In this document: one piece after another, positions 3,001 to 61,266 of the stretch
Layout of the letters: each line of letters begins with the position of its first letter
How positions within the stretch are numbered: the first letter of the stretch is position 1
From: a virus
Virus record (IMG/VR): IMGVR_UViG_3300046804_003780
Direction: 5' to 3' (one strand)
Length of the DNA stretch: 64,000 nt
The notes under the pieces: model-generated
Told to the model about the DNA's origin: nothing
Seen by the model: only the letters and a program-made list of their open reading frames with translations
The model's database searches: none
Program-made: the position numbers and the translations under genes

Positions 3001-6000
3001 TAAATTGGCTAAGTTACCTACTGTTAAATCATTTACAATCCCAGAAGAAATTATAGTATTTGCTGCATTAATAGTTAACTGATTTACGTTAGAGGTAAGT
3101 GATGTTTGACCTATTGCCACACCGACGTTACTTACTGCTAAACTGCGATAACTATTAGCAGGAGTACCTAAATCGTAAGTATTTCCAATATTTGGAATAA
3201 GATTAGATTGAACAAAATTTGCAACTGCTAAGTTATTAACAGTTGCATTAGAATTTATTGTCAGTGTATTAGCATTTAACGCATTGGATTGAATTGTACC
3301 AAATGCGCTAATATTTGAAGTAGATATTAAATTTGCTACATTCGCTAAATTACTAACAGTCAATCTATTAGCAATTGTTATATTATTACTTGAAATGTTT
3401 GCATTTACAGATAGATTGCCGGTTGAATTTAAATTTGCACCTGTAATGTTTCCGTTGGCAGTTACTAATCCGCCAGTTATAAGATTACCAACTGTAGCGT
3501 TTGCAACTATATTAGTAGTATTTGCATTAAGTATGTTAGACTGAATATTTGCGCTAGCAACAATTGAACCATTGGCACTGATATTGCTTAAAAAGGATGC
3601 ACCGTTTACAGTAAGCGTATTTGATATTGTTGTTAAAGGTAAGTTTGCATTTCCTGTAACACTTAGATTACCTGTTTGTATATTAGTGGTTAAAATATTA
3701 CCTGTAACATTAAAAGCTGAAGTAGTTAAAGAAGTTGCATTTAATGATGTTATATTTGCATTATTTGCATTTAAATTACTTACATTTGATGTATCAGCAG
3801 TCAGCAATCCAGTGATTGCAAAAGAGTTTTGACTTATTACTACTACATTTTGTGTATTGTTAACAGTAAAATTAATTGCATTTGTTGAAGGAATAATGAA
3901 AGTGTTTGTACCACTTGCCAAATTACCTCTTAAATTACCTAAAAAGAAATTAGCTACAACAGCATTTCCTAAACTTGCATTTGAACCTGATACTGTACCT
4001 GTTGTACTAATGGCTCCTGTTGCTGATAAACTTGCTACCTGTAAACTACCGCCTATCGTAGCATTACCTGATGCACTTAATCCTGTTGTATTTACATTTG
4101 CTGTTACACTTATATTTCCAGTGGAATTTACATTTGCTCCAACAACATTACCATTAGCAACAATTCCAGTAATACTCAACACACCGGATATATTTGCATT
4201 ACCCAAATTAGCATTATTCGCAACAAAGTTTCCTGCTGCTGTAATATTAGATGTTGATGATATGTTTCCAGTTACACTTAAATTGCCTGCAGCGGTTATA
4301 TTTAAACCTAGGATGTTACCTGATGCGCTTACAAAGCCTGTTGTCGAAACATTTGCTCCTGTCAAATTACCTGAGGCACTTACTACACCTGTAGTAAATA
4401 AATTAGCTCCTGTTATATTACCGGTTACACTGTGTGTTCCAGTAACTTGAACTCCCTGAGGAGTAATTAACTCTACGTTAGATACGCCACCTACGCTTAC
4501 ACCAACATTCCCGTTAGCCGCAACAGTAACATTACTATTACCATTTATAATTTGAGTGCCAGCACCAATAGTCAAATTAGTCAATAAACTTCCATCGCCT
4601 TGGAAGAAGTTTGCTCTTACTAAATTTCCTAAGTTAGCATTTTGACTAAGGATATTGCCATTTGCTGTTAATTGGCCTGCTATTGAAACACTCGCTGCAG
4701 AAACAGCACCCCCTACGCTTAGTGCTCCTGCTACCCCTAAAGGTCCAACATTAGCATTTCCTGTGACACTTAAATTTCCTGATGTTGCTAGATTAGTTCC
4801 TAAAACATTTCCATTTGCACTAAGTGCCCCAGAAGATAAACTACCTACACTTAGTGTGCCATTAGCAGTTATATTGCCAATTACAGTCAATCCTGTATTA
4901 TTAACTCTTACAACATTGGCAGTTCCTCCAGATCCAATTCGAATCTCTCCGTTAATGCTTGGTATAGAAACATTGCTTGTGCCGTTCGTTAGTTGATTAA
5001 GTGAACTTTGATTTCCTAAATTAATTCCTGTTAAAAATGCACCGTTACCTAAAATATAATTGTCTGATCTTATATTCCCTGTCGTACTAATTTCATTTGT
5101 GACGATTAAATTATTTGTTGTCACATTGCCCGAAACAGAAATATTTCCTGAATTTACCTGTTGTCCAATTAAAGTGCCTACCGCACTCACATTTCCTGAT
5201 GTGAGTAAATTTGCACCTATTACATTACCATTGGCACTAACTCGTCCCGCTGTAGTTATGTTTGCTCCTGATAAAGTACCATTTGCATTGATTGCGCTTG
5301 CTGCATTTAAGTTATTTGCTAAAACATTTCCTAATACACTTACGTTATTTGAATTTACGTTATTAGCAGAAATATTACCTGCTGTACTAATTTGAGTAGT
5401 GGCAATTAAATTTGCACCCTGTATATTTCCATTTGCAGTTACACTACCTGTACTTGATATAGTAGCTCCTCTAATATTAGAGTTAGAAACGATATTATTT
5501 GAAACATTTAAGTTTGCACTATTTAAATTTCCTGTTGCACTAATTGTTGTACTTTGAAGTATGTTAGTTAAAGGATTAAATGTTAAATTTGGACTTGCTG
5601 CCAAACCATCATTAATGTTATATTGAATTTGATTGGTTAATCCTGCAACAATGTCAGGTAACACAACTGGGCTCCAACTTAAATTACCAGTTCCATCTGT
5701 AACCAAAGTATAATCAGGATACCCTCCGGTGATTCTGACGTTTGAAACATCACCTAAATTTGTAATACCGTTTACATCCAGTCCCGTCAATGTGCCAACC
5801 GTAGTTATATTAGGTTGTGATGAAGAATTTGCTATTAATTTTCCAGATAAAAAATTCGCATAAACAGCATTAGCAATATTTGCGTTTTCAGCAGTAATTG
5901 TGTTACTTGCGATGCCGTTTGCATCTGAAGAAATTGACGTATTACCTAAATAAATCGTATTGCCTGATAACCATAGTTCTTTCCAACGTTGTGTTGGGCT

Positions 6001-7140
6001 TCCTAAATTTTGTTGTAAATCATCTTGGGGTATAAGATTACCTTTTACTACACCAGTTAATGAAAGATTTCCTATATTTGCATTACCTAGTGTGTTTAAT
6101 CCAGCTGATGTGACAACACCCCCTGCACTTATTTGTCCTGTAGTTCTTAAATTACCACCAGTAACATTACCTGTTGCACTAATACTTGAATTTGCATTTA
6201 CAGTTGTAAAATTAGCAGGCGCTGCGTTACCTGTTCCTAAACCAAGAGATCCTGTCAAGTTCGCTGAAGTAAGAAGCGTGGTTGTTATTCTTGTTATGTT
6301 TGCATTACCAGTTAATGATAAATTACTTGTATCTTTATTAAAGGTAAGATTTGCACTACCACCAAATAATCCAGCTGTATCTTGGAACTGAATTTGTGTG
6401 TTGGCACCACCTGGAGTCCCTGTGCCTGCTTGATAGAATGAACAAATAATATTACCTGTATTGGCAACTGCAGGGGTAAAACCTGTACTGTTGACTGCGT
6501 TAGCTAATCCTGGATCGCTATATATCGAAAAAGTTTTATTTGTTAATTTGACGCCATAATATTTGTTTGTATTGTTTTCACCAGACACCGCAATTTCAGG
6601 CATACCTGCTACACCAATAATAGTTAGTGGAATACCAGTGACAATAGTATTATCATTAATTGTAGTTACAACTGCTGGATTGGCTTTTGTAATGCCTTGT
6701 ATTCTAAATGTGCCAACACCAGTACCTTCCCAGCTCAAGTTACCAGTACCATCTGTGGTTAACACATAACCGTTTAATCCACCTCTTAGTACAACATTGT
6801 TAGCAGTTCCTAAATCTATTTTAATATTGCTTGTGCCACCAGCGTTAACCCATGTATTTGCATTAGCTACTAACACTTGACCTGTGTTGACAGGACTGTT
6901 TAGAGATATTTGTGTGTTAGCAGTACCGCCTATTTTAGACCAGTTGAGTACAGAAACTTCTGTTAAAATCTCTGTTTGAGTGGTTAGTGCATTGCCTGAA
7001 GGGGGAAATAGATTAGGATCATTCCCAATGTATAATCTGCGTTCGTCAGTTGCAAACCCTAATTCGCCCTCAGCTAGTTGGGGCAAGTCAACGTTAGCCC
7101 CTGTGCGGTGTTGAATCTTAGAAATCTGTATAATAGCCAT
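1..7140 (-). CDS. Giant tail-fibre/adhesin-like virion protein, >2380 aa, 3'-truncated at the window edge
   Basis: ATG at 7140 reads MAIIQISKIQHRTGANVDLPQLAEGELGFATDERRLYIGND (Mtd_N-like fibre N-terminus). The same frame is still open at position 1 (...NITLPNPLGNQG), and the track lists no closed minus-strand ORF here. Asn/Gly/Thr/Ala-rich repeats such as GGxxxxVLxTDGxGNLSW and ANLGN..ANFFxG. Confidence 0.85.
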   Translation of the reverse strand, partial: MAIIQISKIQHRTGANVDLPQLAEGELGFATDERRLYIGNDPNLFPPSGNALTTQTEILTEVSVLNWSKIGGTANTQISLNSPVNTGQVLVANANTWVNAGGTSNIKIDLGTANNVVLRGGLNGYVLTTDGTGNLSWEGTGVGTFRIQGITKANPAVVTTINDNTIVTGIPLTIIGVAGMPEIAVSGENNTNKYYGVKLTNKTFSIYSDPGLANAVNSTGFTPAVANTGNIICSFYQAGTGTPGGANTQIQFQDTAGLFGGSANLTFNKDTSNLSLTGNANITRITTTLLTSANLTGSLGLGTGNAAPANFTTVNANSSISATGNVTGGNLRTTGQISAGGVVTSAGLNTLGNANIGNLSLTGVVKGNLIPQDDLQQNLGSPTQRWKELWLSGNTIYLGNTSISSDANGIASNTITAENANIANAVYANFLSGKLIANSSSQPNITTVGTLTGLDVNGITNLGDVSNVRITGGYPDYTLVTDGTGNLSWSPVVLPDIVAGLTNQIQYNINDGLAASPNLTFNPLTNILQSTTISATGNLNSANLNVSNNIVSNSNIRGATISSTGSVTANGNIQGANLIATTQISTAGNISANNVNSNNVSVLGNVLANNLNAASAINANGTLSGANITTAGRVSANGNVIGANLLTSGNVSAVGTLIGQQVNSGNISVSGNVTTNNLIVTNEISTTGNIRSDNYILGNGAFLTGINLGNQSSLNQLTNGTSNVSIPSINGEIRIGSGGTANVVRVNNTGLTVIGNITANGTLSVGSLSSGALSANGNVLGTNLATSGNLSVTGNANVGPLGVAGALSVGGAVSAASVSIAGQLTANGNILSQNANLGNLVRANFFQGDGSLLTNLTIGAGTQIINGNSNVTVAANGNVGVSVGGVSNVELITPQGVQVTGTHSVTGNITGANLFTTGVVSASGNLTGANVSTTGFVSASGNILGLNITAAGNLSVTGNISSTSNITAAGNFVANNANLGNANISGVLSITGIVANGNVVGANVNSTGNISVTANVNTTGLSASGNATIGGSLQVASLSATGAISTTGTVSGSNASLGNAVVANFFLGNLRGNLASGTNTFIIPSTNAINFTVNNTQNVVVISQNSFAITGLLTADTSNVSNLNANNANITSLNATSLTTSAFNVTGNILTTNIQTGNLSVTGNANLPLTTISNTLTVNGASFLSNISANGSIVASANIQSNILNANTTNIVANATVGNLITGGLVTANGNITGANLNSTGNLSVNANISSNNITIANRLTVSNLANVANLISTSNISAFGTIQSNALNANTLTINSNATVNNLAVANFVQSNLIPNIGNTYDLGTPANSYRSLAVSNVGVAIGQTSLTSNVNQLTINAANTIISSGIVNDLTVGNLANLGSIANLRIFGGNNNEVLVTNGSGNLSFSNITAVIPAAGSNTSIQFNDNGVFGASSALTFNKSNGVTSGTFSGNASRLFGIPGANVTGQVPNALVATTVTFASQANITAVGNLTSLSVVGNLRTGNANLGNLATANFISGILTSPSQNNITDLGNLNNLTVSNITGNVNFEFTSNVALGQVSNLRILGGLKGQILSTDGVGNLSWLSPTANRVANGLSAINIEENANIEFTVAGFANRIRVEQSTFASNVNAVFNEAVNFFAPVNLGTIANLRILGGQTGQVLTTTGNAGLIGWASAPATQSIVNGSSNIVVGANTNIRVSVAGTPNVTQFTNTGIITSTVSATGIVNTGLANLGNISNVKIQGGNANNIIITDGSGNISFAPAPIAPSISNGQSNITIDLSGNVRTSVAGNANVFVVANTGITVSGRSNLGPIGNVTITGGAANQLLSTDGQGNLTWVASPPTSQISNGTSNVNIQNINGPVNIVATGVTSAIFSNTGVSVSGSLTANGNILTDIARLKVTGGIANQVLTVVDANGNLTFGSLPASNQIVGGNSNVVVNPNANVTISVQSVANVFTVTATGVRVGGELSLTGNANLANIDSLNILGGNAGDVITTDGAGNLSFTTPSIGTAIANGSSNVRIPINAGNINFGVSGTPNVLVISPQLANLNGNLSVTGNISSNSNLNLAGALSAAGTVTGQNITTAGTISATGNISTSANLSVTGTTTITGQLNIGSANLGNLLSGSGNISVTGNINGNNIIGNALSTTGNINGANITASANANVGNLYATNLVSAAGNIASGNNILASGSISAVGTITGNQFVGNGALLTNVTANVARIANGVSNINIPVANGNISVTVGGASVATISPGNFSVAIDSGFGGNISVFENITAGNRVTANVLSAAGNITGAFLFGNGAFLTGVNTNVYNDGNVANFLPNYTGNLGNVTNINASGIINTSGLIGSYLSVSSATTLPLSRSGALVNITGSNYNITLPNPLGNQG

Positions 7141-13214: not shown

Positions 13215-14169
13215 TTCTCTTCCTCATCATTTCTATTTTTATTTTACTTGTTGTTGCACTTTGTATTATACTTAACAGTGTAGCTAATTTGCCATATTTT
13301 ATTACTGCGTCATTAACATCTTTTACGTCCGGGTCCCAATCGGGCAGACTCACTTTAAAGCCTACTTCCAATGCTCTGTCACATGTTTCAAGTCCGGTTT
13401 TATCTCTATCTGGAACAAATATTATTTCTCTGTTTAGTTGTTTTAAAAAACGAACTTGGTCATCATTAATTGTATTATGTGTCAGTGCTAGCCCATTTAT
13501 ACTTAATGCGTCAAAAATGCCTTCCATTAATAATGCTACTTGCCAGTTTGGTTTTTGTTCGTCGTATCCAAAAACATAACCTGGCTGTTGATCATTAATA
13601 TACTTAGGGGCTCTGTCATCTAAAAATCTACTTGTATGTCCCACTATTTCATTATTGTACAGATATGGAATTATAATCCTGTTAGCGTTTCTTCCTTCAT
13701 CATTTGGCGCTACATAAAAGTTATAATGCTTATGATTCACTTTTCTTGTTTGTAAATAATCAATATATTTTTTATGAATTGGATCCGTGTCATCTAAAAG
13801 TACGCAGTCAGGAAGTTTTTTTTGTTTGAAAATTAATGGTTTTTCTTTAACAAACTTTTTACTAAAATCTAAAATATCCTTATTCTGCAGACTTTCAATA
13901 TTCCAACGTTGTATTTGAGTTTCATCAATTCCGCACCAACTTAATAATTCTCTAGTTCGTTTTGTGATACTTCTGCCTAACTCATAATGGCAACTGAATG
14001 AACAATTAAAACAATTATATGTCCAATTATTACCGTCAAATTTGATTCCGCCTCTATGTCGCTTATCGGGCTTATGCCCACGTTTGTCGCAGCATACCGC
14101 ATTAAAACTATACCAGCCGCTTTGGGTTAATTTTTTTTTGTTTGGAATAACAGTTAGGATATCAAACAT
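13204..14169 (-). CDS. DNA primase (gp61-like, Zn ribbon + Toprim)
   Basis: CC..YNCFNC Zn motif, RIIIP, EGIFDA, PDRD, KDVND. Confidence 0.9.
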   Translation of the reverse strand: MFDILTVIPNKKKLTQSGWYSFNAVCCDKRGHKPDKRHRGGIKFDGNNWTYNCFNCSFSCHYELGRSITKRTRELLSWCGIDETQIQRWNIESLQNKDILDFSKKFVKEKPLIFKQKKLPDCVLLDDTDPIHKKYIDYLQTRKVNHKHYNFYVAPNDEGRNANRIIIPYLYNNEIVGHTSRFLDDRAPKYINDQQPGYVFGYDEQKPNWQVALLMEGIFDALSINGLALTHNTINDDQVRFLKQLNREIIFVPDRDKTGLETCDRALEVGFKVSLPDWDPDVKDVNDAVIKYGKLATLLSIIQSATTSKIKIEMMRKRIGN

Positions 14170-14217
14170 ACTAAGATTATAGTATATTATGCATCAAAAA
14201 TATATATAATTGGTATA

Positions 14218-14964
14218 TTATCTTGCCAAAATATGTGCAACAGTTCCGCCAGTTGATGTGAATTGAAGTTGGATATATGGATGAAATCCTGTTACTGTCG
14301 TTCCTAACGTGTTAGTTTCAGCCACAAAATTTCCCAATGATTCAATTGTGTACCAATCTGCATCAACTGTAGTTGATCCTAGTATATTGATATTACCAGA
14401 ATAATTACTTAAAGATGTTTGTAGAGTAATTTTACTCGCACCATTTAATCCTAATACGCTGCTGTAGTATGTAGTTCCTGAATTAGATATTTCCCCATGG
14501 CTTGGTATAGTAACACGTGTGCTAGGCACATGTTTAGGAAGAATGCCGTCCATTATTTGACACACACCCCTTGCATCTGCTTCGCTATTAGTAAAGATGG
14601 GTAAAGTTAAATTACCATCTACTATATCTAAACTGAAGCTTCCTATTTGGGCATCAATTTCCATTAACTCAGCCTGCGTCACTGTTAAGTTTGCAAGACC
14701 CTTAAGGGGTAACGTTGGATTAACTGTTTTTTGTATATCAACACTAGTTCCATCTGAGTTTATAAATCTAAATGTAATTTGTTTTCCTGTCAAATCGATT
14801 GATTTTTGCTCCTGATTTAGGAATTGAAATTGTATTTTATTATCTACCCCTTTATTTAGGGTCAAGTTTTTTGAGTACACGATTTGATATCTCCTAGGTG
14901 AATCACCCTCAAATAGGACGACTTGATATTTTGGTGTATATTGATAAACGTTTGTTGAGTACAC
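14218..14964 (-). CDS. Probable virion structural protein (Ig-like/baseplate-type)
   Basis: Beta-rich; KGVDNKIQFQFLNQEQKSIDL pattern; GTG start. Confidence 0.45.
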   Translation of the reverse strand: MYSTNVYQYTPKYQVVLFEGDSPRRYQIVYSKNLTLNKGVDNKIQFQFLNQEQKSIDLTGKQITFRFINSDGTSVDIQKTVNPTLPLKGLANLTVTQAELMEIDAQIGSFSLDIVDGNLTLPIFTNSEADARGVCQIMDGILPKHVPSTRVTIPSHGEISNSGTTYYSSVLGLNGASKITLQTSLSNYSGNINILGSTTVDADWYTIESLGNFVAETNTLGTTVTGFHPYIQLQFTSTGGTVAHILAR

Positions 14965-15062
14965 TTTTCAGTCCTTTTGTTTATTTATTCAACTAAATAT
15001 GCTATACGTTTAATAAATATTTTGGTCATAATAAACGATAAATAATCCAAGATTGTAAGAAA

Positions 15063-15440
15063 ATGCACAACGACTTTTTTAAAAAATTATCAGAAAATCA
15101 TCCTTTTATAACAGTTTGTTCCTATTCAGGTCAAGACTACGTAGGTATAATACAAAACCGTGATGATATTGTTACAACTATATATGATTACGGTTCCATA
15201 GTACAAAATGAAATGCGTGAGCGTTTTTTAGAACTTGGGGAAATTTGGTGGTGGGAAAGTAACCGACTTATACCAATCAATATGTTTCTTAGAGAAGAAT
15301 GGGCACCATTTAAAGCTTTTTTAAGGACATTTAATAATAAAAGTTTAGATATTATTCATGGCCCAGTTTGTAGTATGAGTGATTTACATAAGAAAAAAAG
15401 CAAACGTAGGAGCATCACTTTAGTCCAACGTATGCCTTAA
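15063..15440 (+). CDS. Hypothetical protein
   Basis: ORF track; TAAATA upstream on +; natural composition. Confidence 0.65.
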   Translation: MHNDFFKKLSENHPFITVCSYSGQDYVGIIQNRDDIVTTIYDYGSIVQNEMRERFLELGEIWWWESNRLIPINMFLREEWAPFKAFLRTFNNKSLDIIHGPVCSMSDLHKKKSKRRSITLVQRMP

Positions 15441-15998
15441 ACGTTCAAGATAGTTCATATGTACAACCACTAAATGTGCATATGCAACACTATGACTTTT
15501 CTTAAAGCTATATCCATCTTCAGTTTTATCCCATACCGTCTTTGATACTTCACTCCAAGGTTTTCCTAATAAATGTTTTTTTGCTGGACGTATACATGCT
15601 AAAAACATCGCTAGTCTAGGAATACTATCTACAGGTTCTGGCATTTTTTGTAAATTATTATAATGGTTTCCTAAATGAACTAACTGTTCGACAAATTCCT
15701 TATCTTTTAATAAATCCCAATTAGGAATGTTCATTAAGTTTAATAACTCTTGTTCGGTTTTGATTTCATTATATACGTGAACATTTAGTAAATCTAGTTT
15801 TAGATATCCTCTTTCCTCAGCCTCAACGTAGTCAATATTAGCCATATCATGAAGTGCATCATATGGTATTTCTGTCACGTATACTCCCGTATTGTGTTTA
15901 CGCATTGGACTTACATTTCTCATAGCTGCAGGAATGTGTTTAATATGTTGAAGTATCAAATCACGATTACCAAAGTCTATGTCAATATCAAAGTTCAT
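15420..15998 (-). CDS. Miniature DNA polymerase III alpha (DnaE) catalytic-core-like protein
   Basis: DIDIDF, HNTGVY, GYLKLDLL, IRP and GYSFKKSHSVAYA correspond to DnaE palm/finger motifs. Confidence 0.85.
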   Translation of the reverse strand: MNFDIDIDFGNRDLILQHIKHIPAAMRNVSPMRKHNTGVYVTEIPYDALHDMANIDYVEAEERGYLKLDLLNVHVYNEIKTEQELLNLMNIPNWDLLKDKEFVEQLVHLGNHYNNLQKMPEPVDSIPRLAMFLACIRPAKKHLLGKPWSEVSKTVWDKTEDGYSFKKSHSVAYAHLVVVHMNYLERLRHTLD

Positions 15999-16561
15999 TT
16001 AAGTGCAAAACCCTTGTCCATTAATTTTTTATATGCATCTTGTACAACCATTGCTTGGTGTGCTGCATCTTCTACCGCTTTGTGTGTAGTCTTTGTACTA
16101 TATTTTTTATCTTTCAAACTAACACCAGCAATTTCAAATAATGTTCTTGTGTCACGCACTGTATAAAAAGGCCAAGGAATGGGATTAGGTCTTTCAGTCA
16201 ATGTTTGACGCATAGCCGTTTCCATTACTACTACATCAAATGGTGCACCATGACTCCATACTGCTTGTCGATTCCAACAAAATTTATAAAGTTTCTCCAT
16301 ACAATCTTTCAATGGCTCTCTATCATTGTCACCCATAGCCTCTTCTAGTGCTGCAGGATTTTGTGTACTCCACCAACGGATGGTATCATCATTGATAACA
16401 CGATTGTAAATTTCTGTTTGATCTTCAAGAGTAGGTCTTAGTTCTAATTTTTCAACAATACCATCGCCTCTTGGATCAAATCTTACTGCACCAATTGTAA
16501 GTATAACACAGTAAGGGCTTGTGTCAAGGCTTTCAATATCAATCATGATATGATTAGCCAT
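15995..16561 (-). CDS. DEDDh 3'-5' exonuclease
   Basis: MIDIESL, WSHGAPFD, RDTRT, HKAVEDA. Confidence 0.9.
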   Translation of the reverse strand: MANHIMIDIESLDTSPYCVILTIGAVRFDPRGDGIVEKLELRPTLEDQTEIYNRVINDDTIRWWSTQNPAALEEAMGDNDREPLKDCMEKLYKFCWNRQAVWSHGAPFDVVVMETAMRQTLTERPNPIPWPFYTVRDTRTLFEIAGVSLKDKKYSTKTTHKAVEDAAHQAMVVQDAYKKLMDKGFALK

Positions 16562-33542: not shown

Positions 33543-33558
33543 GTATGTATTTAGCGTG

Positions 33559-50436: not shown

Positions 50437-50471
50437 TTGTAACAGAATTGTCATACTACGGCCATTAAATA
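50437..50471 (+). promoter_or_regulatory. Pho box + TAAATA promoter of pstS
   Basis: TTGTAAC-AGAA-TTGTCAT (11-bp direct repeat), 11 nt, then TAAATA. Confidence 0.75.
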
Positions 50472-50514
50472 TTTATTGCAAAATATAAATTTTCTTAAAA
50501 AGGAGACACACACT

Positions 50515-51540
50515 ATGAAAAAACTATTTGCAGTTTTATCTTTTGCAGTAGCAGGTATAGCAACAGCAGCAGAATTTACTGGCGCTGGAGCTACATTCCC
50601 ATTTCCAATCTACGCTAAATGGGCGGAAGCCTATAAAGCACAAACTGGAATCGGCTTAAACTATCAAAGTATCGGTAGTGGCGGCGGCATTCGTCAAATC
50701 AAAGCAAAGACAGTTGACTTTGGTGCAAGCGACATGCCATTAAAGAAAGAAGAATTAGATAAAGAAGGTCTTGTTCAATTTCCAGCAATTATTGGCGGTG
50801 TAGTACCAGTTGTTAATTTAGATGGCATACAACCTGGTCAATTAAAGTTGACACCAGAAATAATTGCAAATATACATTTAGGTAAAATTACTAAATGGAA
50901 TGATAAAGCTATTGCCGAAATTAATTCAGGTGTAAATTTACCTGCATTAAATATCACAGTTATTCATCGTGCAGATGGTTCAGGCACTACATTCATTTGG
51001 ACAAACTTTCTAAGCAAAGCTAATGCAGACTTTCAAAAGATAGTAGGCGAAGGTACTGCTGTTAAATGGCCAGTTGGTGTAGGTGGTAAAGGTAATGAAG
51101 GTGTTGCAGCACAAGTACAACGCATTAAGGGTAGTTTTGGTTATGTAGAATATGCATTTGCTAAAAGAAATAAAATTGCACATACACAATTAAAGAATCG
51201 TGACGGTAATTTTGTACAACCAGATGATAGTACATTTAAGGCAGCAACAGCAAATGCAGATTGGGTTAATGCTCCAGGAATGTATTTGTTACTAACATGG
51301 CAAAATGGAAAAGATACTTGGCCAGCAACAGGTGCTAGTTTCATCTTAATGCATAAGCAACAAGCAGATGCATTAACAGGTCGTGCAGTTCTCAAATTCT
51401 TTGATTGGAGTTACAAGAACGGCAGTCAAATGGCATCTGAATTAGAATATGTACATATGCCACAAGATGTAATTAAGCTTGTTCAGGAAAATTGGAAGAA
51501 AGACTTCCGTGGTCCCGATGGTAACGCAATTTGGAAATAA
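50515..51540 (+). CDS. pstS: Phosphate ABC transporter periplasmic binding protein
   Basis: GAGATFP, YQSIGSGGG, DFGASD, RADGSGTT, GKGNEG; signal peptide; AGGAG SD. Confidence 0.97.
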   Translation: MKKLFAVLSFAVAGIATAAEFTGAGATFPFPIYAKWAEAYKAQTGIGLNYQSIGSGGGIRQIKAKTVDFGASDMPLKKEELDKEGLVQFPAIIGGVVPVVNLDGIQPGQLKLTPEIIANIHLGKITKWNDKAIAEINSGVNLPALNITVIHRADGSGTTFIWTNFLSKANADFQKIVGEGTAVKWPVGVGGKGNEGVAAQVQRIKGSFGYVEYAFAKRNKIAHTQLKNRDGNFVQPDDSTFKAATANADWVNAPGMYLLLTWQNGKDTWPATGASFILMHKQQADALTGRAVLKFFDWSYKNGSQMASELEYVHMPQDVIKLVQENWKKDFRGPDGNAIWK

Positions 51541-51550
51541 GGAAAATTAA

Positions 51551-52957
51551 ATGAAAACTTTTACAAAAATAGCATTAAGCCTTGCATTAGCTTTTAGTAT
51601 TCCCGCATATGCTGATGAATATCTAGACACTTTAAAAATTTTAAAGGATAAAGGCATTTTGACACAGACAGAGTATGATGTTAAAGTCAAAGAATATGAA
51701 GATAAAGCAGAAAACAAAAAATTTTCTGATCAAAGGATAGATAAAGATGTCAGCGACAACAACAAATACAGAATCGCAAGAATCAACGACGGATCTGTAT
51801 CAGAAAACGGAATCGGACTTAAATCTAAGGATGGGAACAACACTCTCAACCTTACGGGTAGACTACATATGGACTATCGTCAGTACGACCCCACTTATGG
51901 TGCAGGTCAAACCACAGATTCGTATCAAAATGTAGCTGAAGTTCGTCGTGCTAGATTTGGTGTTCGTGGTCAGTTTGCTAAAGACTTCAAGTATCAATTA
52001 CTCGCCAACTTTGGTAATGATGCTGGTTCTAGTGCAACTACGACAACTGCTGATGAAATGTGGGTAAACTATGCTGCCAATCCTGAAATGCAATTTCAGT
52101 TTGGGTTATTTAAAATGCCATTTAGTTTAGAACAGTTAACAAGTTCAAATAATATAGATTTTATGGAGCGTAGTCTTATTGGACAAACCGAAGGAGAATT
52201 TATTCCTGCAAAAGAAACAGGCTTTATGATTCATGGAATACCTAAGCCTGGTTTACTCTATCAAGTAGCAATAAGTCGTGGTCGTGGTAACAAAGATGCA
52301 GCTAACGACGGCTTTGACTATATCGGTCGTGTTGTAACTAACATTGCTGAATTACAAGGTAGTAAAGCTTATGTGTTACACTTAGGTGCAGCATATAGTA
52401 CAGGTGAGATTAAAGGCGGTGTTACACCAGCAAGTGGTAGAACAGAATCACGCAGTCAATCAGCCTGGTTCACAGGTCCAGCGTTAAGTGGTGCTACTAC
52501 AAGAACACGCCAAGGTCTTGAAGCGGCTTTTGCATATAATGGATTGAAGTTACAGGGTGAACAGTTCCAATTTAATTATGATCCTACTACAGGTAAAGAT
52601 CAGAAAATAAATGGATACTATGTACAAGCTTTGTATAACTTGACAGGTGAAAGTCACAACTATAAAGACGGTATCTTCAATTGGATCAAACCTAATAATC
52701 CAACTGATAAGGGTGGCCGCGGTGCATGGCAAGTTGGTGTCCGTATGAGTGAGTTTGATGCTAGTGATATTGCTGTAGTTGCTGGCAAATCTAATCGTGC
52801 CACTGCTATGACCTATGGAGTCACTTGGTTCTGTACAGACAATTTACGCTTCATGTTAAACTATGTAGACACAAAGTTTGACAGTTTAGTAGGAAGTTCC
52901 GGAAGTCGTGTGACTGGCGATAAAGCAGTTATGTTTAGAAGTCAATTAAGTTTTTAA
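51551..52957 (+). CDS. Phosphate-selective outer-membrane porin (OprO/OprP family)
   Basis: Signal peptide, VRRARFGVRG, FKMPFSLEQLTSS, FMERS, C-terminal Phe. Confidence 0.9.
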   Translation: MKTFTKIALSLALAFSIPAYADEYLDTLKILKDKGILTQTEYDVKVKEYEDKAENKKFSDQRIDKDVSDNNKYRIARINDGSVSENGIGLKSKDGNNTLNLTGRLHMDYRQYDPTYGAGQTTDSYQNVAEVRRARFGVRGQFAKDFKYQLLANFGNDAGSSATTTTADEMWVNYAANPEMQFQFGLFKMPFSLEQLTSSNNIDFMERSLIGQTEGEFIPAKETGFMIHGIPKPGLLYQVAISRGRGNKDAANDGFDYIGRVVTNIAELQGSKAYVLHLGAAYSTGEIKGGVTPASGRTESRSQSAWFTGPALSGATTRTRQGLEAAFAYNGLKLQGEQFQFNYDPTTGKDQKINGYYVQALYNLTGESHNYKDGIFNWIKPNNPTDKGGRGAWQVGVRMSEFDASDIAVVAGKSNRATAMTYGVTWFCTDNLRFMLNYVDTKFDSLVGSSGSRVTGDKAVMFRSQLSF

Positions 52958-52971
52958 ATAAAAAACTTTCA

Positions 52972-52999
52972 AAAAAAAGGCACTTAAGTGCCTTTTTTT
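52972..52999. terminator. Bidirectional Rho-independent terminator
   Basis: AAAAAAAGGCACTTAAGTGCCTTTTTTT. Confidence 0.85.
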
Positions 53000-53004
53000 G
53001 TGGT

Positions 53005-53039
53005 TTGTAATGGTATTGTCATACAATATATTCTAAATA
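53005..53039 (+). promoter_or_regulatory. Second Pho box + TAAATA promoter
   Basis: TTGTAAT-GGTA-TTGTCAT, 11 nt, then TAAATA; same geometry as at pstS. Confidence 0.75.
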
Positions 53040-53044
53040 TTAAT

Positions 53045-53854
53045 ATGAAAACACATTATCGCACTATTTTTATATCTGATGTACATTTAGGAACTAAAGA
53101 TTGTAAGGCTGAAGCTCTAAACAATTTTTTAAAAAATCAAACATGTGACACTTTATATCTTGTAGGCGACATAATTGATGCGTGGAAAATAAAACAAAAT
53201 AAATGGCGTTGGAAACAAAGTCACACAAATGTGGTACGCAGAATTTTAGGTCATGCTAAAAGAAACACAAGAGTAGTTTATGTAATAGGCAATCATGATG
53301 AGTTTTTAAGACCTTTTCTACAATACAATTTAAATTTTGGTATGGTAGAAATGCATAATCAAATTGAACATATAGGTATTGATGGTAAGCATTATCTAGT
53401 TGTTCATGGAGATTTATTCGATGGTATAACAAGACTAGCACCTTGGCTAGCAATTTTGGGAGACAAAGCATATGACGCCGTTTTATCTTGCAATACTAGA
53501 ATCAATAGCATCTTACATAGAATGGGCTTTGGTTATTTTAGTCTCAGTCACTATCTTAAACGCCGGGTAAAAAAAGCAGTGGATTTTATATTTCAATTTG
53601 AAAAGAATCTTGCTGCCTATTGTAAGAAAAAAGGTTATGATGGTGTGATATGTGGGCATATTCATCATGCTGAAATAAAAAATGTAGATGGAATAATTTA
53701 CATGAATGACGGCGACTGGGTAGAAAGTAATACTGCTTTAGTAGAACACACGAACGGTCGTTGGGAAATAATTACATGGAGACAAGAATCTGATAATGTA
53801 TTTGATGATATTGATAGCAGTACATCTGAGCGATCCAAAAGACATACCAGGTAG
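53045..53854 (+). CDS. plcP: PlcP-like metallophosphoesterase (phospholipase C; LpxH2-type family)
   Basis: YRTIFISDVHLG, LVGDIID, GNHDEFLR, HGDLFD, WLAILGD, CGHIHHAE, NDGDWVES. Confidence 0.75.
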   Translation: MKTHYRTIFISDVHLGTKDCKAEALNNFLKNQTCDTLYLVGDIIDAWKIKQNKWRWKQSHTNVVRRILGHAKRNTRVVYVIGNHDEFLRPFLQYNLNFGMVEMHNQIEHIGIDGKHYLVVHGDLFDGITRLAPWLAILGDKAYDAVLSCNTRINSILHRMGFGYFSLSHYLKRRVKKAVDFIFQFEKNLAAYCKKKGYDGVICGHIHHAEIKNVDGIIYMNDGDWVESNTALVEHTNGRWEIITWRQESDNVFDDIDSSTSERSKRHTR

Positions 53855-53969
53855 AATAACTCTTGAATTTACTGATCAAATAACTTGTGAACAAAGTTTG
53901 CAAAGTATGACATATTGGTTAAAATTTAATAATTTTAAAATTGAAGGAAAGTGTGTTAAAAAAATATGA
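53796..53969 (+). CDS. 57-aa two-Cys protein (family A; not in track)
   Basis: MYLMILIAVHLSDPKDIPGRITLEFTDQITCEQSLQSMTYWLKFNNFKIEGKCVKKI; ATGA overlap with the next gene. Confidence 0.6.
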   Translation: MYLMILIAVHLSDPKDIPGRITLEFTDQITCEQSLQSMTYWLKFNNFKIEGKCVKKI

Positions 53970-54676
53970 AATTAAGCGAAAAACTTACTATAATAATTCC
54001 ATGTAAGAATGAAGAAAATTATATAAGTAATTTACTTCATTCCTTAAGATTACAAAAAATAGGCGACACTAAAGTTATTATTGCAGACTGTTCAACAGAT
54101 AATACTAGAGAAGTAATAAAAAATAATCGTGCTTTTTTGAATATCGAAATTATTGAAGGCGGTCCTGTTGCGATTGCGAGAAATAATGGAGCAAAATTAG
54201 CTACAACACCTTACCTGCTTTTTTTAGATGCAGATGTTATATTCTTTGATAACTACGTTATTCGTGACTCAATTTTTATTATGGAGTTAGAAAAGCTTGA
54301 TTTACTTGGTGCGAAAATAAGATGCTATGAAGATAATTGGAAAGCAGAATTAAGCTTTATGATTTTTAATTGTATCAATGACATGCTAAAATATTTTTCT
54401 CCATTTGCTGTAGGTGCTTTCTTTTTAACTCGTAAAGACAAATTTGACGAATACGGTGGATTTGATGCGCGGTATACGACCTCAGAGGATTTCTTTTTAT
54501 CAAGAAAATATGAACCTGAAAAATTTGAAATCATAAATCATTATTTTGGCCAAGACTCACGCAGATTTAAAAAGATGGGATATTTTGGTATGGGTTGGTA
54601 TCTTATTAGAAATTTTATGAATCGAAACAACAAAAAATATTGGGATAAACTTGATCATACAAAATATTGGAGTTAA
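53966..54676 (+). CDS. Glycosyltransferase family 2
   Basis: IIIPCKNEE, STDNT, ARNNGA, FLDAD, GGFD, SED. Confidence 0.9.
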   Translation: MKLSEKLTIIIPCKNEENYISNLLHSLRLQKIGDTKVIIADCSTDNTREVIKNNRAFLNIEIIEGGPVAIARNNGAKLATTPYLLFLDADVIFFDNYVIRDSIFIMELEKLDLLGAKIRCYEDNWKAELSFMIFNCINDMLKYFSPFAVGAFFLTRKDKFDEYGGFDARYTTSEDFFLSRKYEPEKFEIINHYFGQDSRRFKKMGYFGMGWYLIRNFMNRNNKKYWDKLDHTKYWS

Positions 54677-54720
54677 AATCGGACACAAACATAGAGTGTC
54701 TCTGGAACTCGTAACCAGAT

Positions 54721-54738
54721 GCCCAATTGGGCTTTTTT
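54721..54738 (+). terminator. Putative terminator
   Basis: GCCC-AATT-GGGC followed by TTTTTT. Confidence 0.55.
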
Positions 54739-54759
54739 CATGGCTATAAATACTCTATC

Positions 54760-55404
54760 ATGTCCCCAACAATAGCATTATTTCTACATCAACCAAAATG
54801 TTCGGTCCAAAGCGGGAACGGAATTATTAAAGCCCTAAGCCCATACTACCGTTTCAAAATATTTACCAAACATGAGCTTGAGGATGATTTTTTTGATGAT
54901 GTGGATATAGTAGCAATTCCGGGAGGTATAGGGGATAGCGATACATTTAGATACTTAATGCGAACTAACGGACAAAGAATTCGTAACTTTGTAGCATCAG
55001 GTGGTAAGTATTTGGGAATATGCATGGGTGCATATTGGGCAGATACGGATTATTTAGGTTTACTTAATAGCGTAAGAGTAGTACAATATATAAAACGGCC
55101 AAATACAGACACTAAACGACCACATGCTAAGAACATCTATGTAAACTGGTTAGGTCAAGAAATGGGTATGTATTTTTATGATGGTTGTTCTTACGAAGGT
55201 GATAGTAGCAAATTTGAAACTATTGCCGTATATAAAAACAACGACCCAATGGCGATTATACAGGATAATGTAGGATTAATTGGTTGTCATCCAGAAAGTG
55301 AGAAGCACTGGTATGATAGTTACACTTGGATGCGCAAACATTATCATGGTGATACACATGGGCAACTATTGTTAAATTTTGTAAACTACTTATATAGGAA
55401 ATAA
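54760..55404 (+). CDS. Class I glutamine amidotransferase-like (BPL-N-type) protein
   Basis: IPGG, YLGICMGAY, CHPE; TATAAATA upstream. Confidence 0.8.
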   Translation: MSPTIALFLHQPKCSVQSGNGIIKALSPYYRFKIFTKHELEDDFFDDVDIVAIPGGIGDSDTFRYLMRTNGQRIRNFVASGGKYLGICMGAYWADTDYLGLLNSVRVVQYIKRPNTDTKRPHAKNIYVNWLGQEMGMYFYDGCSYEGDSSKFETIAVYKNNDPMAIIQDNVGLIGCHPESEKHWYDSYTWMRKHYHGDTHGQLLLNFVNYLYRK

Positions 55405-57000: not shown

Positions 57001-57022
57001 TAAAAGTGGCCCTAAGGCCACT
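57001..57022 (-). terminator. Terminator of the tmRNA locus
   Basis: AGTGGCC-TTAG-GGCCACT-TTTA. Confidence 0.8.
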
Positions 57023-57024
57023 AA

Positions 57025-57341
57025 ACTATTTTTGGTTACAAGGCATAGTTGCCCCGAAGATCATGCTGCTAGAGCAAAAACCTCATCGTTAGCTGCGTTT
57101 GCAGTTATAGTTTTGCTTGATTGACAGTCATCGCCTACTGTGTTGTCCATATCCTTACTAATTGCCCTGTCGAAACCAAATTCAGGCCCATCATAAGAGG
57201 ATTATAGCAAATGCAATCACTATGGCTGCTAAACTATAAACAATTGTTTCGCCTACTTGATACATTCTAATCTCCTTATGGTGGACCTGCCCGGGGTCGA
57301 ACCGGGGTCCAGAACACCTTTCATTCAACTTCATACAACAA
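57025..57341 (-). ncRNA. ssrA: Circularly permuted two-piece tmRNA; tag ANAANDEVFALAA; outer ends approximate
   Basis: Acceptor piece first (T-arm CCCGGTTCGACCCCGGG, then CAGGTCC-A-CCA ending at 57279). Coding piece starts GGGCCTG at 57189, giving G3:U70. Tag ORF at 57102..57061. Confidence 0.93.
57191..57265 (-). CDS. 24-aa hydrophobic peptide inside the tmRNA intervening segment
   Basis: TAAGGAG-6 nt-ATG; MYQVGETIVYSLAAIVIAFAIILL. Confidence 0.6.
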   Translation of the reverse strand: MYQVGETIVYSLAAIVIAFAIILL

Positions 57342-57470
57342 TTCTTTAAGCTGTTGACAATATACTTGACATTGCCCACACCTATGATCCAGCTCAAAAA
57401 TACGCTGAATTAATTCCTCTTTTGTCTTAAAATCTGATTCTTTAATATTTCTACAAACACAAATAATCAT
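57321..57470 (-). CDS. Bfd-like [2Fe-2S] ferredoxin (not in track)
   Basis: MIICVCRNIKE...CGQC, 49 aa. Confidence 0.65.
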   Translation of the reverse strand: MIICVCRNIKESDFKTKEELIQRIFELDHRCGQCQVYCQQLKELLYEVE

Positions 57471-59850: not shown

Positions 59851-61266
59851 TTACTTTATATTTTTCCAGTCATTATATAATTCAATAAATTCGGGAAATA
59901 TTTGTAAAAAATTAGTTCCGCGTCTTTTATCATGCTCATCTACAAACTTTATAAAGTCCTGTCTATTGATGCTTAAATTAGGATTTGGATTGTCAAGCTC
60001 GTGATTTACGATTGTTAAGACTCTTTTTAATTTATCAATTTCATGGTCATAGAATCCCATATAGGCCTGAGAAGGAATTCGTAAACCTATCTCTTTGTGG
60101 TCTTCCATAAACTTTACCTGTTCTTCAATAAAATGTACATAATTTTTTGGTATTATAAATGCTGGTTGATGAGCAGGGAATCTTAAATAGGGTATATCAA
60201 TAGAAAGTACCATTTTACGATTAGCAACTGATATTTCTCTATACTTTTGTCTTATATCTAACACATCTTGTAAAAATGTTTTGAATGATGGTACACTTAA
60301 AATATTGTAGGTGCTAGTTACTGATAAAACTACATTGGGTACTTCAGTAATAAGCCTTTCAATATTTTTAATCCAATCATTGTAATTTAAACCAAAGCGT
60401 GTATATTCTGCTTGTTTACCATGTGCCTCTGCACTTGTAAAAATACGCAGTTTCGATACACATTTATTTTCATCTATTATCTTTAATTTTTCAATAAGTT
60501 TATCAAACAATTCTTTTGGAGGATTTAAATTAGAGTTAATACTGAAACATAATTTAGGATTAGGATTTTCAATGATATAATCTAAAACTTTAAATGTATC
60601 TTTACTTAATATAGGTTCTCCGCCTGTTATTCTAAACTCTAAAAGTTCTTTATACATCTTAGGCCACCAGTCCCAAAACGCATCCATGTATGGATTATGC
60701 TGATTGTTTGGTATTGGTATTTGATTCTTTGTTTTAATCCATTCTAAACTGTTAAAATTTGAAGTAGTTGGATAAGGACCATGTCTTTCAATTTCTTCCA
60801 TCCATTGACTACTTATGTGAGGCATACAATAACTACACTTAAAATTACATACACTACTAAAACTCACCTCAACATAACTTGGATTAACATCATCGTCCCA
60901 AGGTTTGTCACTAATATCTTTAATAAAAGGATAACCCCACATAGGATCTGCGCTTTTATAAATTCTGTCACTATATTGGTTTCCTGCATCCTCTGCTCTC
61001 CAACAATAATCACATTCAGTTGGTCTTATTCCAACTAACATTTGTTTTCTTAATTCTTTTTTGAATTTAGTATTGTGTAGGGCTGAAGGATTTACTGCAA
61101 TTTCTTCTAATGGAACTAGGTGAGTTCCTGGGTGATGACAACTATGAGTGTGTCCATTATGTAAATGCATCGTAACTTGTTTCCACTTAGCAACACAAAA
61201 ACTAGGACTCACTGCGTTAATTTCCTCAGCAGCCTTTGCTAAATGTTTTTGATAATTATCATTCAT
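59851..61266 (-). CDS. Radical SAM protein with N-terminal twitch/SPASM-like Cys motifs
   Basis: CNFKCSYC, TGGEP; FCVAKW, SCHH, CDYCW. Confidence 0.9.
   Translation of the reverse strand: MNDNYQKHLAKAAEEINAVSPSFCVAKWKQVTMHLHNGHTHSCHHPGTHLVPLEEIAVNPSALHNTKFKKELRKQMLVGIRPTECDYCWRAEDAGNQYSDRIYKSADPMWGYPFIKDISDKPWDDDVNPSYVEVSFSSVCNFKCSYCMPHISSQWMEEIERHGPYPTTSNFNSLEWIKTKNQIPIPNNQHNPYMDAFWDWWPKMYKELLEFRITGGEPILSKDTFKVLDYIIENPNPKLCFSINSNLNPPKELFDKLIEKLKIIDENKCVSKLRIFTSAEAHGKQAEYTRFGLNYNDWIKNIERLITEVPNVVLSVTSTYNILSVPSFKTFLQDVLDIRQKYREISVANRKMVLSIDIPYLRFPAHQPAFIIPKNYVHFIEEQVKFMEDHKEIGLRIPSQAYMGFYDHEIDKLKRVLTIVNHELDNPNPNLSINRQDFIKFVDEHDKRRGTNFLQIFPEFIELYNDWKNIK

Follow-up and report, generated by a model that had tools for sequence, protein, structure and literature searches.

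A candidate phage-borne phosphate-starvation module combining phosphate uptake with predicted membrane-lipid renovation

Why would a phage carry, beside genes for phosphate uptake, a metallophosphoesterase and a glycosyltransferase? We address this question for a stretch of viral DNA from IMG/VR (record IMGVR_UViG_3300046804_003780), analysed here over its full 64,000 nucleotides (hereafter the window). The window also encodes phage hallmarks, namely a large terminase, virion proteins, DnaB-type and other helicases, a tail-fibre-like gene, and a tail assembly chaperone, and it has a close relative in a 163-kb IMG/VR genome that CheckV estimates to be 98% complete. The cassette in question occupies positions 50437-55404, with all genes on the + strand, and by its layout comprises two transcription units. 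We consider it fairly probable that it is a phosphate-starvation module in which an uptake unit, together with lipid renovation by a phospholipase C of the PlcP family and a partner glycosyltransferase, feeds phage DNA synthesis; in other words, the phage probably mines host membrane lipids for phosphorus.

The first unit opens with a Pho-box-like direct repeat (TTGTAAC-AGAA-TTGTCAT, 7-nucleotide half-sites with an 11-nucleotide period; 50437..50454), followed exactly 11 nucleotides later by a -10-like TAAATA element (50466..50471). Downstream of these lie pstS, encoding a periplasmic phosphate-binding protein with a signal peptide (50515..51540), and a gene for an OprO/P-type phosphate-selective outer-membrane porin, also with a signal peptide (51551..52957); an intrinsic terminator-like hairpin with a 12-pair stem and a T-run (52972..52999) ends the unit. 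The second unit has its own repeat (TTGTAAT-GGTA-TTGTCAT; 53005..53022) and its own TAAATA (53034..53039), 11 nucleotides past the box and 5 nucleotides ahead of the ATG of a calcineurin-like metallophosphoesterase gene, which we call plcP (53045..53854). There follow a conserved gene of 56 or 57 residues from no known family (53796..53969) and a family 2 glycosyltransferase (GT2) with a GT-A fold (53966..54676; PF00535, 72.7 bits). An earlier note on this DNA had named pstS, the porin, the terminator, the metallophosphoesterase, and the GT2, and profile models, Pfam matches, and the hairpin confirm each of them where it had placed them; the short gene between plcP and the GT2 had escaped it.

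The phosphoesterase belongs to the PlcP family

The phosphoesterase contains the motifs DVH, GDIID, GNHD, HGD, and GHIH, and the metal-binding residues D12, H14, D42, N83, H84, H121, H205, and H207 are invariant in phage and bacterial copies in two alignments. It is 54% identical to the orthologue of Pseudomonas aeruginosa PA3219 (E = 4e-89) and 48% identical to that of Sinorhizobium meliloti SMc00171 (E = 6e-81), values comparable to the 46-47% pairwise identity among characterised PlcPs (PMC8528852); both E values pass the BLASTP limit of E < 1e-40 used in the literature as a criterion of PlcP homology (PMC4796936). The reference proteins came from PLSDB records that are chromosome pieces filed as plasmids, and each was picked by its context: in the P. 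aeruginosa record, PA3219 has a family-1 glycosyltransferase (Agt1/PA3218) and cyaB (PA3217) alongside, and in the 3.7-Mb S. meliloti record, the SMc00171 orthologue has sinR/sinI alongside.

The name that annotation pipelines give to such genes is a different one. JGI (Joint Genome Institute) and GenBank annotations of relatives use LpxH (UDP-2,3-diacylglucosamine diphosphatase), an enzyme of similar size with the same calcineurin-like fold, and lists of viral auxiliary metabolic genes contain "lpxH" under lipopolysaccharide synthesis. If the name were right, the phage would be boosting lipid A synthesis, and the window protein is indeed weakly homologous to LpxH proteins of solved structure (E = 6e-5, confined to the N-terminal half). 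The family tests refute this reading, and we give it almost no weight. Against the two LpxH equivalog models the protein scores 46.1 bits (cut-off, 134) and 34.6 bits (cut-off, 190), and where it aligns with the solved structures, LpxH has GNRD and the window has GNHD. A tblastn search of four bacterial genomes with the window protein did not return their true LpxH and, in the two genomes that gave a second locus, returned a separate PlcP-like paralogue; bacteria with a PlcP relative possess a real LpxH as well.

The comparison with PlcP and LpxH that the earlier note had proposed as a check was made with a tree of 74 rows, comprising phage copies, 30 bacterial relatives, the two reference PlcPs, and LpxH of the same four bacteria; it was built by a quick method and carries only support values of the SH-aLRT type (Shimodaira-Hasegawa-like approximate likelihood ratio test). 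A starred branch with support of 100 parts LpxH from all other rows, and the phage copies form a clade within PlcP, sister to a gammaproteobacterial group holding PA3219 (support 96, starred). Identity to two characterised PlcPs, position in the tree relative to LpxH, catalytic motifs, and the Pho-box context together identify the phosphoesterase as a member of the PlcP family and not LpxH, much as the note had supposed from GNHD and the motif pattern, and phospholipase C activity of the Mn type (manganese-dependent) is predicted from this family assignment. The lpxH label in virus surveys would accordingly hide a function in the phosphorus cycle.

Linkage and control sites in related phages

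Scanning IMG/VR by pattern turned up at least 374 viral contigs with close PlcP relatives, of which 80 were kept (76-93% identity); six query proteins were then mapped in these 80 loci and in eight contigs from metagenomes. In every viral locus that extends far enough downstream, the next gene after plcP is either the GT2 (about 52 viral loci) or a 332-residue family 4 glycosyltransferase, GT4 (about 31); none of these loci has both. Approached from the other side, at least 587 IMG/VR viral contigs have a relative of the GT2, and plcP lies immediately upstream in 66 of the 67 loci with enough upstream sequence, so the linkage in related phages, whose absence the earlier note had named as a refutation, is very strong and holds from either gene. 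The GT4 of the sister phages passes the test for Agt, the glycosyltransferase of the bacterial pathway, both in its GT4 domains and in its homology to P. aeruginosa Agt1/PA3218 (39% identity over the full length, E = 1e-80), an enzyme that makes monoglucosyl-diacylglycerol in Escherichia coli and in vitro (PMC8528852). Bacteria show the same order: in 53 of the 80 loci examined for the nearest PlcP relatives (47-56% identity; from Burkholderiales, Pseudomonas, Rhodospirillales, and other groups), an Agt-type GT4 comes directly after plcP. The type of glycosyltransferase changes about seven times on the PlcP tree, with starred branches forcing at least two changes. Since the GT2 fills the slot that an Agt homologue holds in sister phages and in bacteria, it may well do Agt's job, an argument from position and not from homology.

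The uptake genes are more loosely attached. Both pstS and the phosphate porin gene are frequently linked to plcP in related loci, where they lie upstream of it, downstream of it, or out of range. The cassette itself occurs on viral records of 161 kb, 163 kb, and 525 kb, all near complete according to CheckV (loci L017, L026, and L078); with carrier records of such different size, the cassette may pass from one lineage of phages to another, or there may be chimeras among the records. In the phage record collection, only two isolated phages have a PlcP relative, Pelagibacter phage Mosig and Synechococcus phage S-SRM01, both annotated as LpxH-type, and three further unannotated metagenomic records match PlcP. 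The S-SRM01 protein is 40% identical to the window PlcP and is encoded beside psbA and hli genes.

Both units of the window have a Pho-box-like repeat, as the earlier note had observed. The pattern YTGTMAY-N4-YTGTMAY, which was composed after the two sites had been seen, occurs exactly twice on both strands of the window, at 50437 and 53005; shuffled sequences lead one to expect 0.08 occurrences, and none of 100 shuffles gave two. Conservation in related phages provides an independent test. Among unique related regions, a Pho-box-like site is present upstream of plcP in 28 of 63, at -39 to -43 from the ATG, and upstream of pstS in 21 of 30. Counted instead as matches of at least 10/14 to CTGTCAT-N4-CTGTCAT, sites precede plcP in 38 of 89 loci and pstS in 22 of 42, and none was found upstream of GT2, GT4, porin, or BPL_N-like genes in the related loci. 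The geometry of two 7-nucleotide direct repeats with an 11-nucleotide period, about 10 nucleotides before a -10 element, is conserved in related loci: the gap from box to TAAAT is exactly 11 nucleotides at all 21 pstS boxes and at 26 of the 28 plcP boxes, and the letters of the spacer vary. This arrangement suggests control of both units by PhoB; a composite of Pho box and phage promoter element would fit the data, and an ordinary sigma-70 promoter dependent on PhoB would fit them just as well.

The two units differ in their leaders. At plcP loci with a box, TAAATA stands about 5-8 nucleotides ahead of the ATG, with no ribosome-binding site; given this short distance and the missing ribosome-binding site, the plcP message is probably leaderless or nearly so. 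The leader of pstS, in contrast, is of the normal kind and contains GGAG. Just past TAAATA in the pstS leader of many relatives there is a conserved palindrome, TGTGCA-N1-3-TGCACA (L003, L009, L037, L048, L053, L060-L065, and L072), which is absent from the window's own pstS leader. Across the window, TAAATA precedes open reading frame (ORF) starts 24 times where 3.4 are expected, an expectation that goes by area alone and ignores AT-rich spacers. It sits 5-8 nucleotides before many ORF starts, that of the terminase included (for example near 33554, 30825, 26401, 24791 (-), and 5946 (+)). This distribution suggests that TAAATA acts as a promoter element of the phage and leaves messages with very short leaders or none. 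For the T4-type late promoter TATAAATA there is no enrichment: the window has 5 copies where 13.3 are expected.

The proposed pathway and competing readings

We propose that active PhoB of a phosphate-starved host would switch on both units. With PstS and the OprO/P porin of the first unit, the infected cell would capture more phosphate through its outer membrane and periplasm. The second unit, comprising plcP, the 56-residue protein, and the GT2, would be the viral counterpart of the PlcP-Agt pathway by which bacteria renovate their lipids: PlcP, as a cytoplasmic Mn-type phospholipase C, would take phospho-head groups off host phospholipids and leave diacylglycerol, which the GT2 would glycosylate to a phosphorus-free glycolipid, so that the membrane would stay intact until lysis. 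Host phosphatases would dephosphorylate the released phospho-alcohols and thereby supply phosphate for phage DNA synthesis. The known phage phosphate genes (pstS, phoA) act on uptake; a module of this kind would add an internal source, the host membrane. By a rough estimate, the phospholipid phosphorus of a small cell amounts to that of several 160-kb phage genomes.

The closest known system is the bacterial PlcP-Agt operon, represented by S. meliloti SMc00171, P. aeruginosa PA3219-PA3218, Burkholderia cenocepacia BCAL2364-2365, and PB7211_983/960 of SAR11 strain HTCC7211. The window resembles it in the PlcP family (48-54% identity), in the Pho-box-type site upstream, and in the glycosyltransferase immediately downstream, and its sister phages have a true Agt homologue. 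It differs in being phage encoded, in having a 236-residue GT2 in place of the GT4 Agt, in the phage-only 56-residue gene between plcP and the glycosyltransferase, in the absence of dagK, and in an apparently leaderless plcP.

Phage pstS is well known, and cyanophage pstS and phoA are reportedly controlled by host PhoR/PhoB, a finding ascribed to Zeng and Chisholm in 2012. The window shares with these genes and with pelagimyophage pstS (PMC12379486) the phage-borne pstS and the apparent borrowing of the host phosphate regulator through Pho boxes; it adds to them an outer-membrane porin and a predicted intracellular lipid-mining pathway, and its PstS belongs to the type of the beta- and gammaproteobacteria. 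A phosphate-selective porin in large phages has one precedent, oprP in freshwater amoC-phages, described in a preprint of June 2026 that is silent on pstS, lipids, LpxH, and glycosyltransferases (bioRxiv 10.64898/2026.06.18.733297). Membership of the amoC-phages was considered for the window phage too, and no AmoC was found in five relatives, three of them at least 96% complete. The earlier note knew of no phage lipid-remodelling module, and in open-access papers and bioRxiv we likewise found no report of one or of a phage plcP. The bacterial pathway and the phage phosphate genes are known; what is new is the predicted unit for lipid renovation on a phage, with the GT2 as its partner enzyme, and the small gene.

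A number of observations weigh against this proposal, and the first group concerns the glycosyltransferase. The enzyme of the window cannot be called an Agt: Agt is a GT4 with a GT-B fold, and the window protein is a GT2 with a GT-A fold and no detectable Agt homology. Its 236 residues include no transmembrane segment; the AlphaFold2 (AF2) model (pLDDT, the predicted local distance difference test score, 87) has a GT-A fold, and the DxD motif (D88, D90) and the pair E174-D175 are invariant among relatives. A Foldseek search of the PDB with this model returned generic GT-A matches (TarP, TarS, and others) that are silent on the acceptor. This GT2 is absent from all 80 of the bacterial plcP loci, and its nearest bacterial relatives, about 30% identical, occur with a VTT/DedA-LssY_C membrane protein and not with plcP. 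The best relatives in 401 Pseudomonadota genomes are 32-33% identical, five bacterial genomes with PlcP relatives gave no GT2 match, and no donor of the GT2 was found in either set.

These same observations leave room for a genuine PlcP whose neighbouring GT2 acts on another acceptor, such as polyprenyl phosphate, lipopolysaccharide, or an envelope glycan, in which case the phage would be remodelling the cell surface, for example to block superinfection. The DedA/VTT family has been linked to the flipping of polyprenyl phosphate and lipids, and a VTT(DedA)-LssY_C gene follows the GT2 relative in 5 of the 6 bacterial loci examined. The fold matches TarP and TarS are wall teichoic acid glycosyltransferases, and there are weak PHROG matches of the GT2 to GtrB-like O-antigen conversion enzymes; the latter, however, span just the nucleotide-binding N-terminus, and the GT2 lacks a transmembrane segment of the GtrB/ArnC kind. 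We regard another acceptor as unlikely, because the GT2 and the Agt-type GT4 exclude each other in a single slot whose occupant has switched several times, and because the GT2 so strictly follows plcP. Apart from this question, the bacterial relatives (242-256 residues) and the VTT-LssY_C fusion of about 425 residues make up a two-gene unit, a pairing not described before (loci L196-L201).

Diacylglycerol, by analogy with Agt, is thus the acceptor that we favour for the GT2, which we consider a candidate for a new glycolipid synthase. The last 40 residues of the protein are rich in Lys, Arg, Trp, Tyr, and Phe, and such a basic and aromatic C-terminus would suit binding at the membrane surface. 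Known GT2-type diacylglycerol glycosyltransferases include cyanobacterial MgdA and Mycoplasma MG517. Another point of comparison is Pgt (GT21) of Mesorhizobium and Agrobacterium, which likewise glycosylates diacylglycerol with a GT-A fold and whose genes adjoin plcP in some marine bacteria (PMC4796936). The window GT2 just reaches the Pfam threshold for GT21 (PF13506, 22.1 bits; cut-off, 21.7), and PF13506 is found in 73-89% of the members of its nearest bacterial Atlas clusters. It appears to be much shorter than Pgt, MgdA, and MG517, and it has no transmembrane segment. By features and shape, the nearest annotated Atlas clusters are of lipid-acceptor types, namely short GT2s of bacteria that carry GT21 domains, and proteins resembling carotenoid glycosyltransferases; they serve as leads only. 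Membership of TIGR04283 was rejected (67.5 bits; cut-off, 182), and the bacterial relatives, at about 100 bits, also fall below its cut-off.

The second group of contrary observations concerns the fate of the phosphorus and its regulation. PlcP itself frees no orthophosphate: it releases phospho-head groups (in the S. meliloti work, reportedly phosphocholine), so a phosphatase, in all likelihood one of the host, has to act next. The earlier note had the phage both importing phosphate and releasing it from phospholipids; the uptake genes and the PlcP assignment uphold that idea, and the release of free phosphate by PlcP alone falls away. For every phage copy, moreover, the enzyme activities are read from sequence. 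The boxes of the window match only 11/14 positions of the E. coli consensus CTGTCAT-N4-CTGTCAT. In about half of the related loci, a different conserved element of about 45 nucleotides stands 20-70 nucleotides upstream of plcP in place of a Pho box. It consists of the inverted repeat GTCAC-N9-GTGAC followed by CTGG-N7-CCAG (L012, L013, L016, L018, L021, L022, and about 20 more) and could be an operator or a pair of RNA hairpins; in loci with this element, the pstS box reads TTGTGAC-N4-CCGTTAC. Finally, in Mosig, pstS and the gene of the PlcP relative (annotated as UDP-2,3-diacylglucosamine hydrolase; 47% identity) point away from each other at 4894-6729 and no glycosyltransferase accompanies them, which extends the link between pstS and plcP to distant myophages and also means that the glycosyltransferase is not universal.

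The lipid swap might also operate as proposed and benefit the phage in a way unrelated to phosphorus, through membrane charge or physiology, the stability of the infected cell, its susceptibility to phages or grazers, or the timing of lysis. Many loci have plcP and a glycosyltransferase with no pstS or porin within 6 kb, and in bacteria the lipid swap alters resistance to antimicrobial peptides, grazing, and phage attachment (PMC8528852; PMC9457565, PMC9938194, PMC9804370). We think a benefit of this kind improbable, since the Pho-box-type sites are found before plcP and pstS only and plcP is so often linked to pstS and the phosphate porin, the pstS link recurring even in a phage as distant as Mosig. 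Lipid renovation as a source of phosphorus remains our preferred reading.

The overlapping gene, the uptake proteins, and the host

The small gene that the earlier note had overlooked is an ORF of 57 codons (53796-53969) that overlaps the last 59 nucleotides of plcP in the +1 frame and whose stop overlaps the start of the GT2 gene (ATGA). By tblastn it is present in 87 phage loci, ahead of both GT2 and GT4, and absent from the bacterial plcP loci. In each of the 56 unique sequences this frame reads through, and stops interrupt both of the others. Codon-position entropy is 0.82/0.68/1.27 outside the overlap and 0.46/0.26/0.83 inside it, with third positions varying most. Residues M1, D16, P18, C31, K43, F44, F47, and C53 are invariant, and the protein has no Pfam or PHROG match. 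The tail of PlcP beyond about residue 247 is of low complexity and varies in length among phage copies (262-294 residues in total), which fits the small overlapping gene setting the constraint there. The AF2 model of the small protein is poor (pLDDT 72; pTM, the predicted template modelling score, 0.46), and a complex prediction for PlcP (residues 1-250) with the small protein (score 0.17, mark 0.32) gives no evidence either way. A small ORF that follows plcP in Mosig was considered as a homologue and is unrelated. The gene ties a protein of no known family to the predicted lipid renovation.

A more elaborate form of our proposal would make this a three-part phage system. The GT2 would represent a novel class of diacylglycerol glycosyltransferases and would have replaced Agt repeatedly, the 56-residue protein, found only in phages, would be a needed subunit or regulator, and host PhoB would gate a phage-type TAAATA promoter that drives a leaderless plcP. 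We hold this extended version to be possible but doubtful.

The identities of the uptake proteins are clear. The start of pstS is the ATG at 50515, which has an AAGGAG ribosome-binding site; the program-listed ORF begins at a TTG at 50476. PstS exceeds the cut-offs of two equivalog models (NF008171, 421.7 bits against 339; TIGR00975, 367.2 bits against 205), matches phrog_5385 (phosphate transporter subunit), and shares 56-58% identity with its counterparts in Limnohabitans and Acidovorax genomes (Burkholderiales). The porin has a signal-like N-terminus and matches PF07396 with 184.8 bits over profile positions 2-345 of 370, and its anion selectivity is predicted by family alone. No homologue of it was found among 50,697 GenBank phage records.

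The window also encodes a permuted, two-piece transfer-messenger RNA (tmRNA) of the betaproteobacterial type (57001-57391, - strand; RF01850, 122.7 bits; RF04321, 129 bits) with the tag peptide ANAANDEVFALAA. Its best matches in 301 Burkholderiales genomes are 76-77% identical over about 100 nucleotides and come from two small genomes, neither of which gave a PlcP match. The tmRNA type, together with the similarity of PstS to that of Limnohabitans and Acidovorax, tentatively suggests a host in the Burkholderiales.

The last gene of the cassette encodes a BPL_N or class-I glutamine-amidotransferase-like protein (54727..55404; PF09825, 44.2 bits) with no NCBIfam or PHROG match. A gene of this kind lies within 6 kb of plcP in about 45 of 88 related loci, and its position and strand vary. 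Just past the cassette there are radical SAM/SPASM genes (59851-61266, - strand), which also occur in relatives, for example at 13903-16225 of locus L005.

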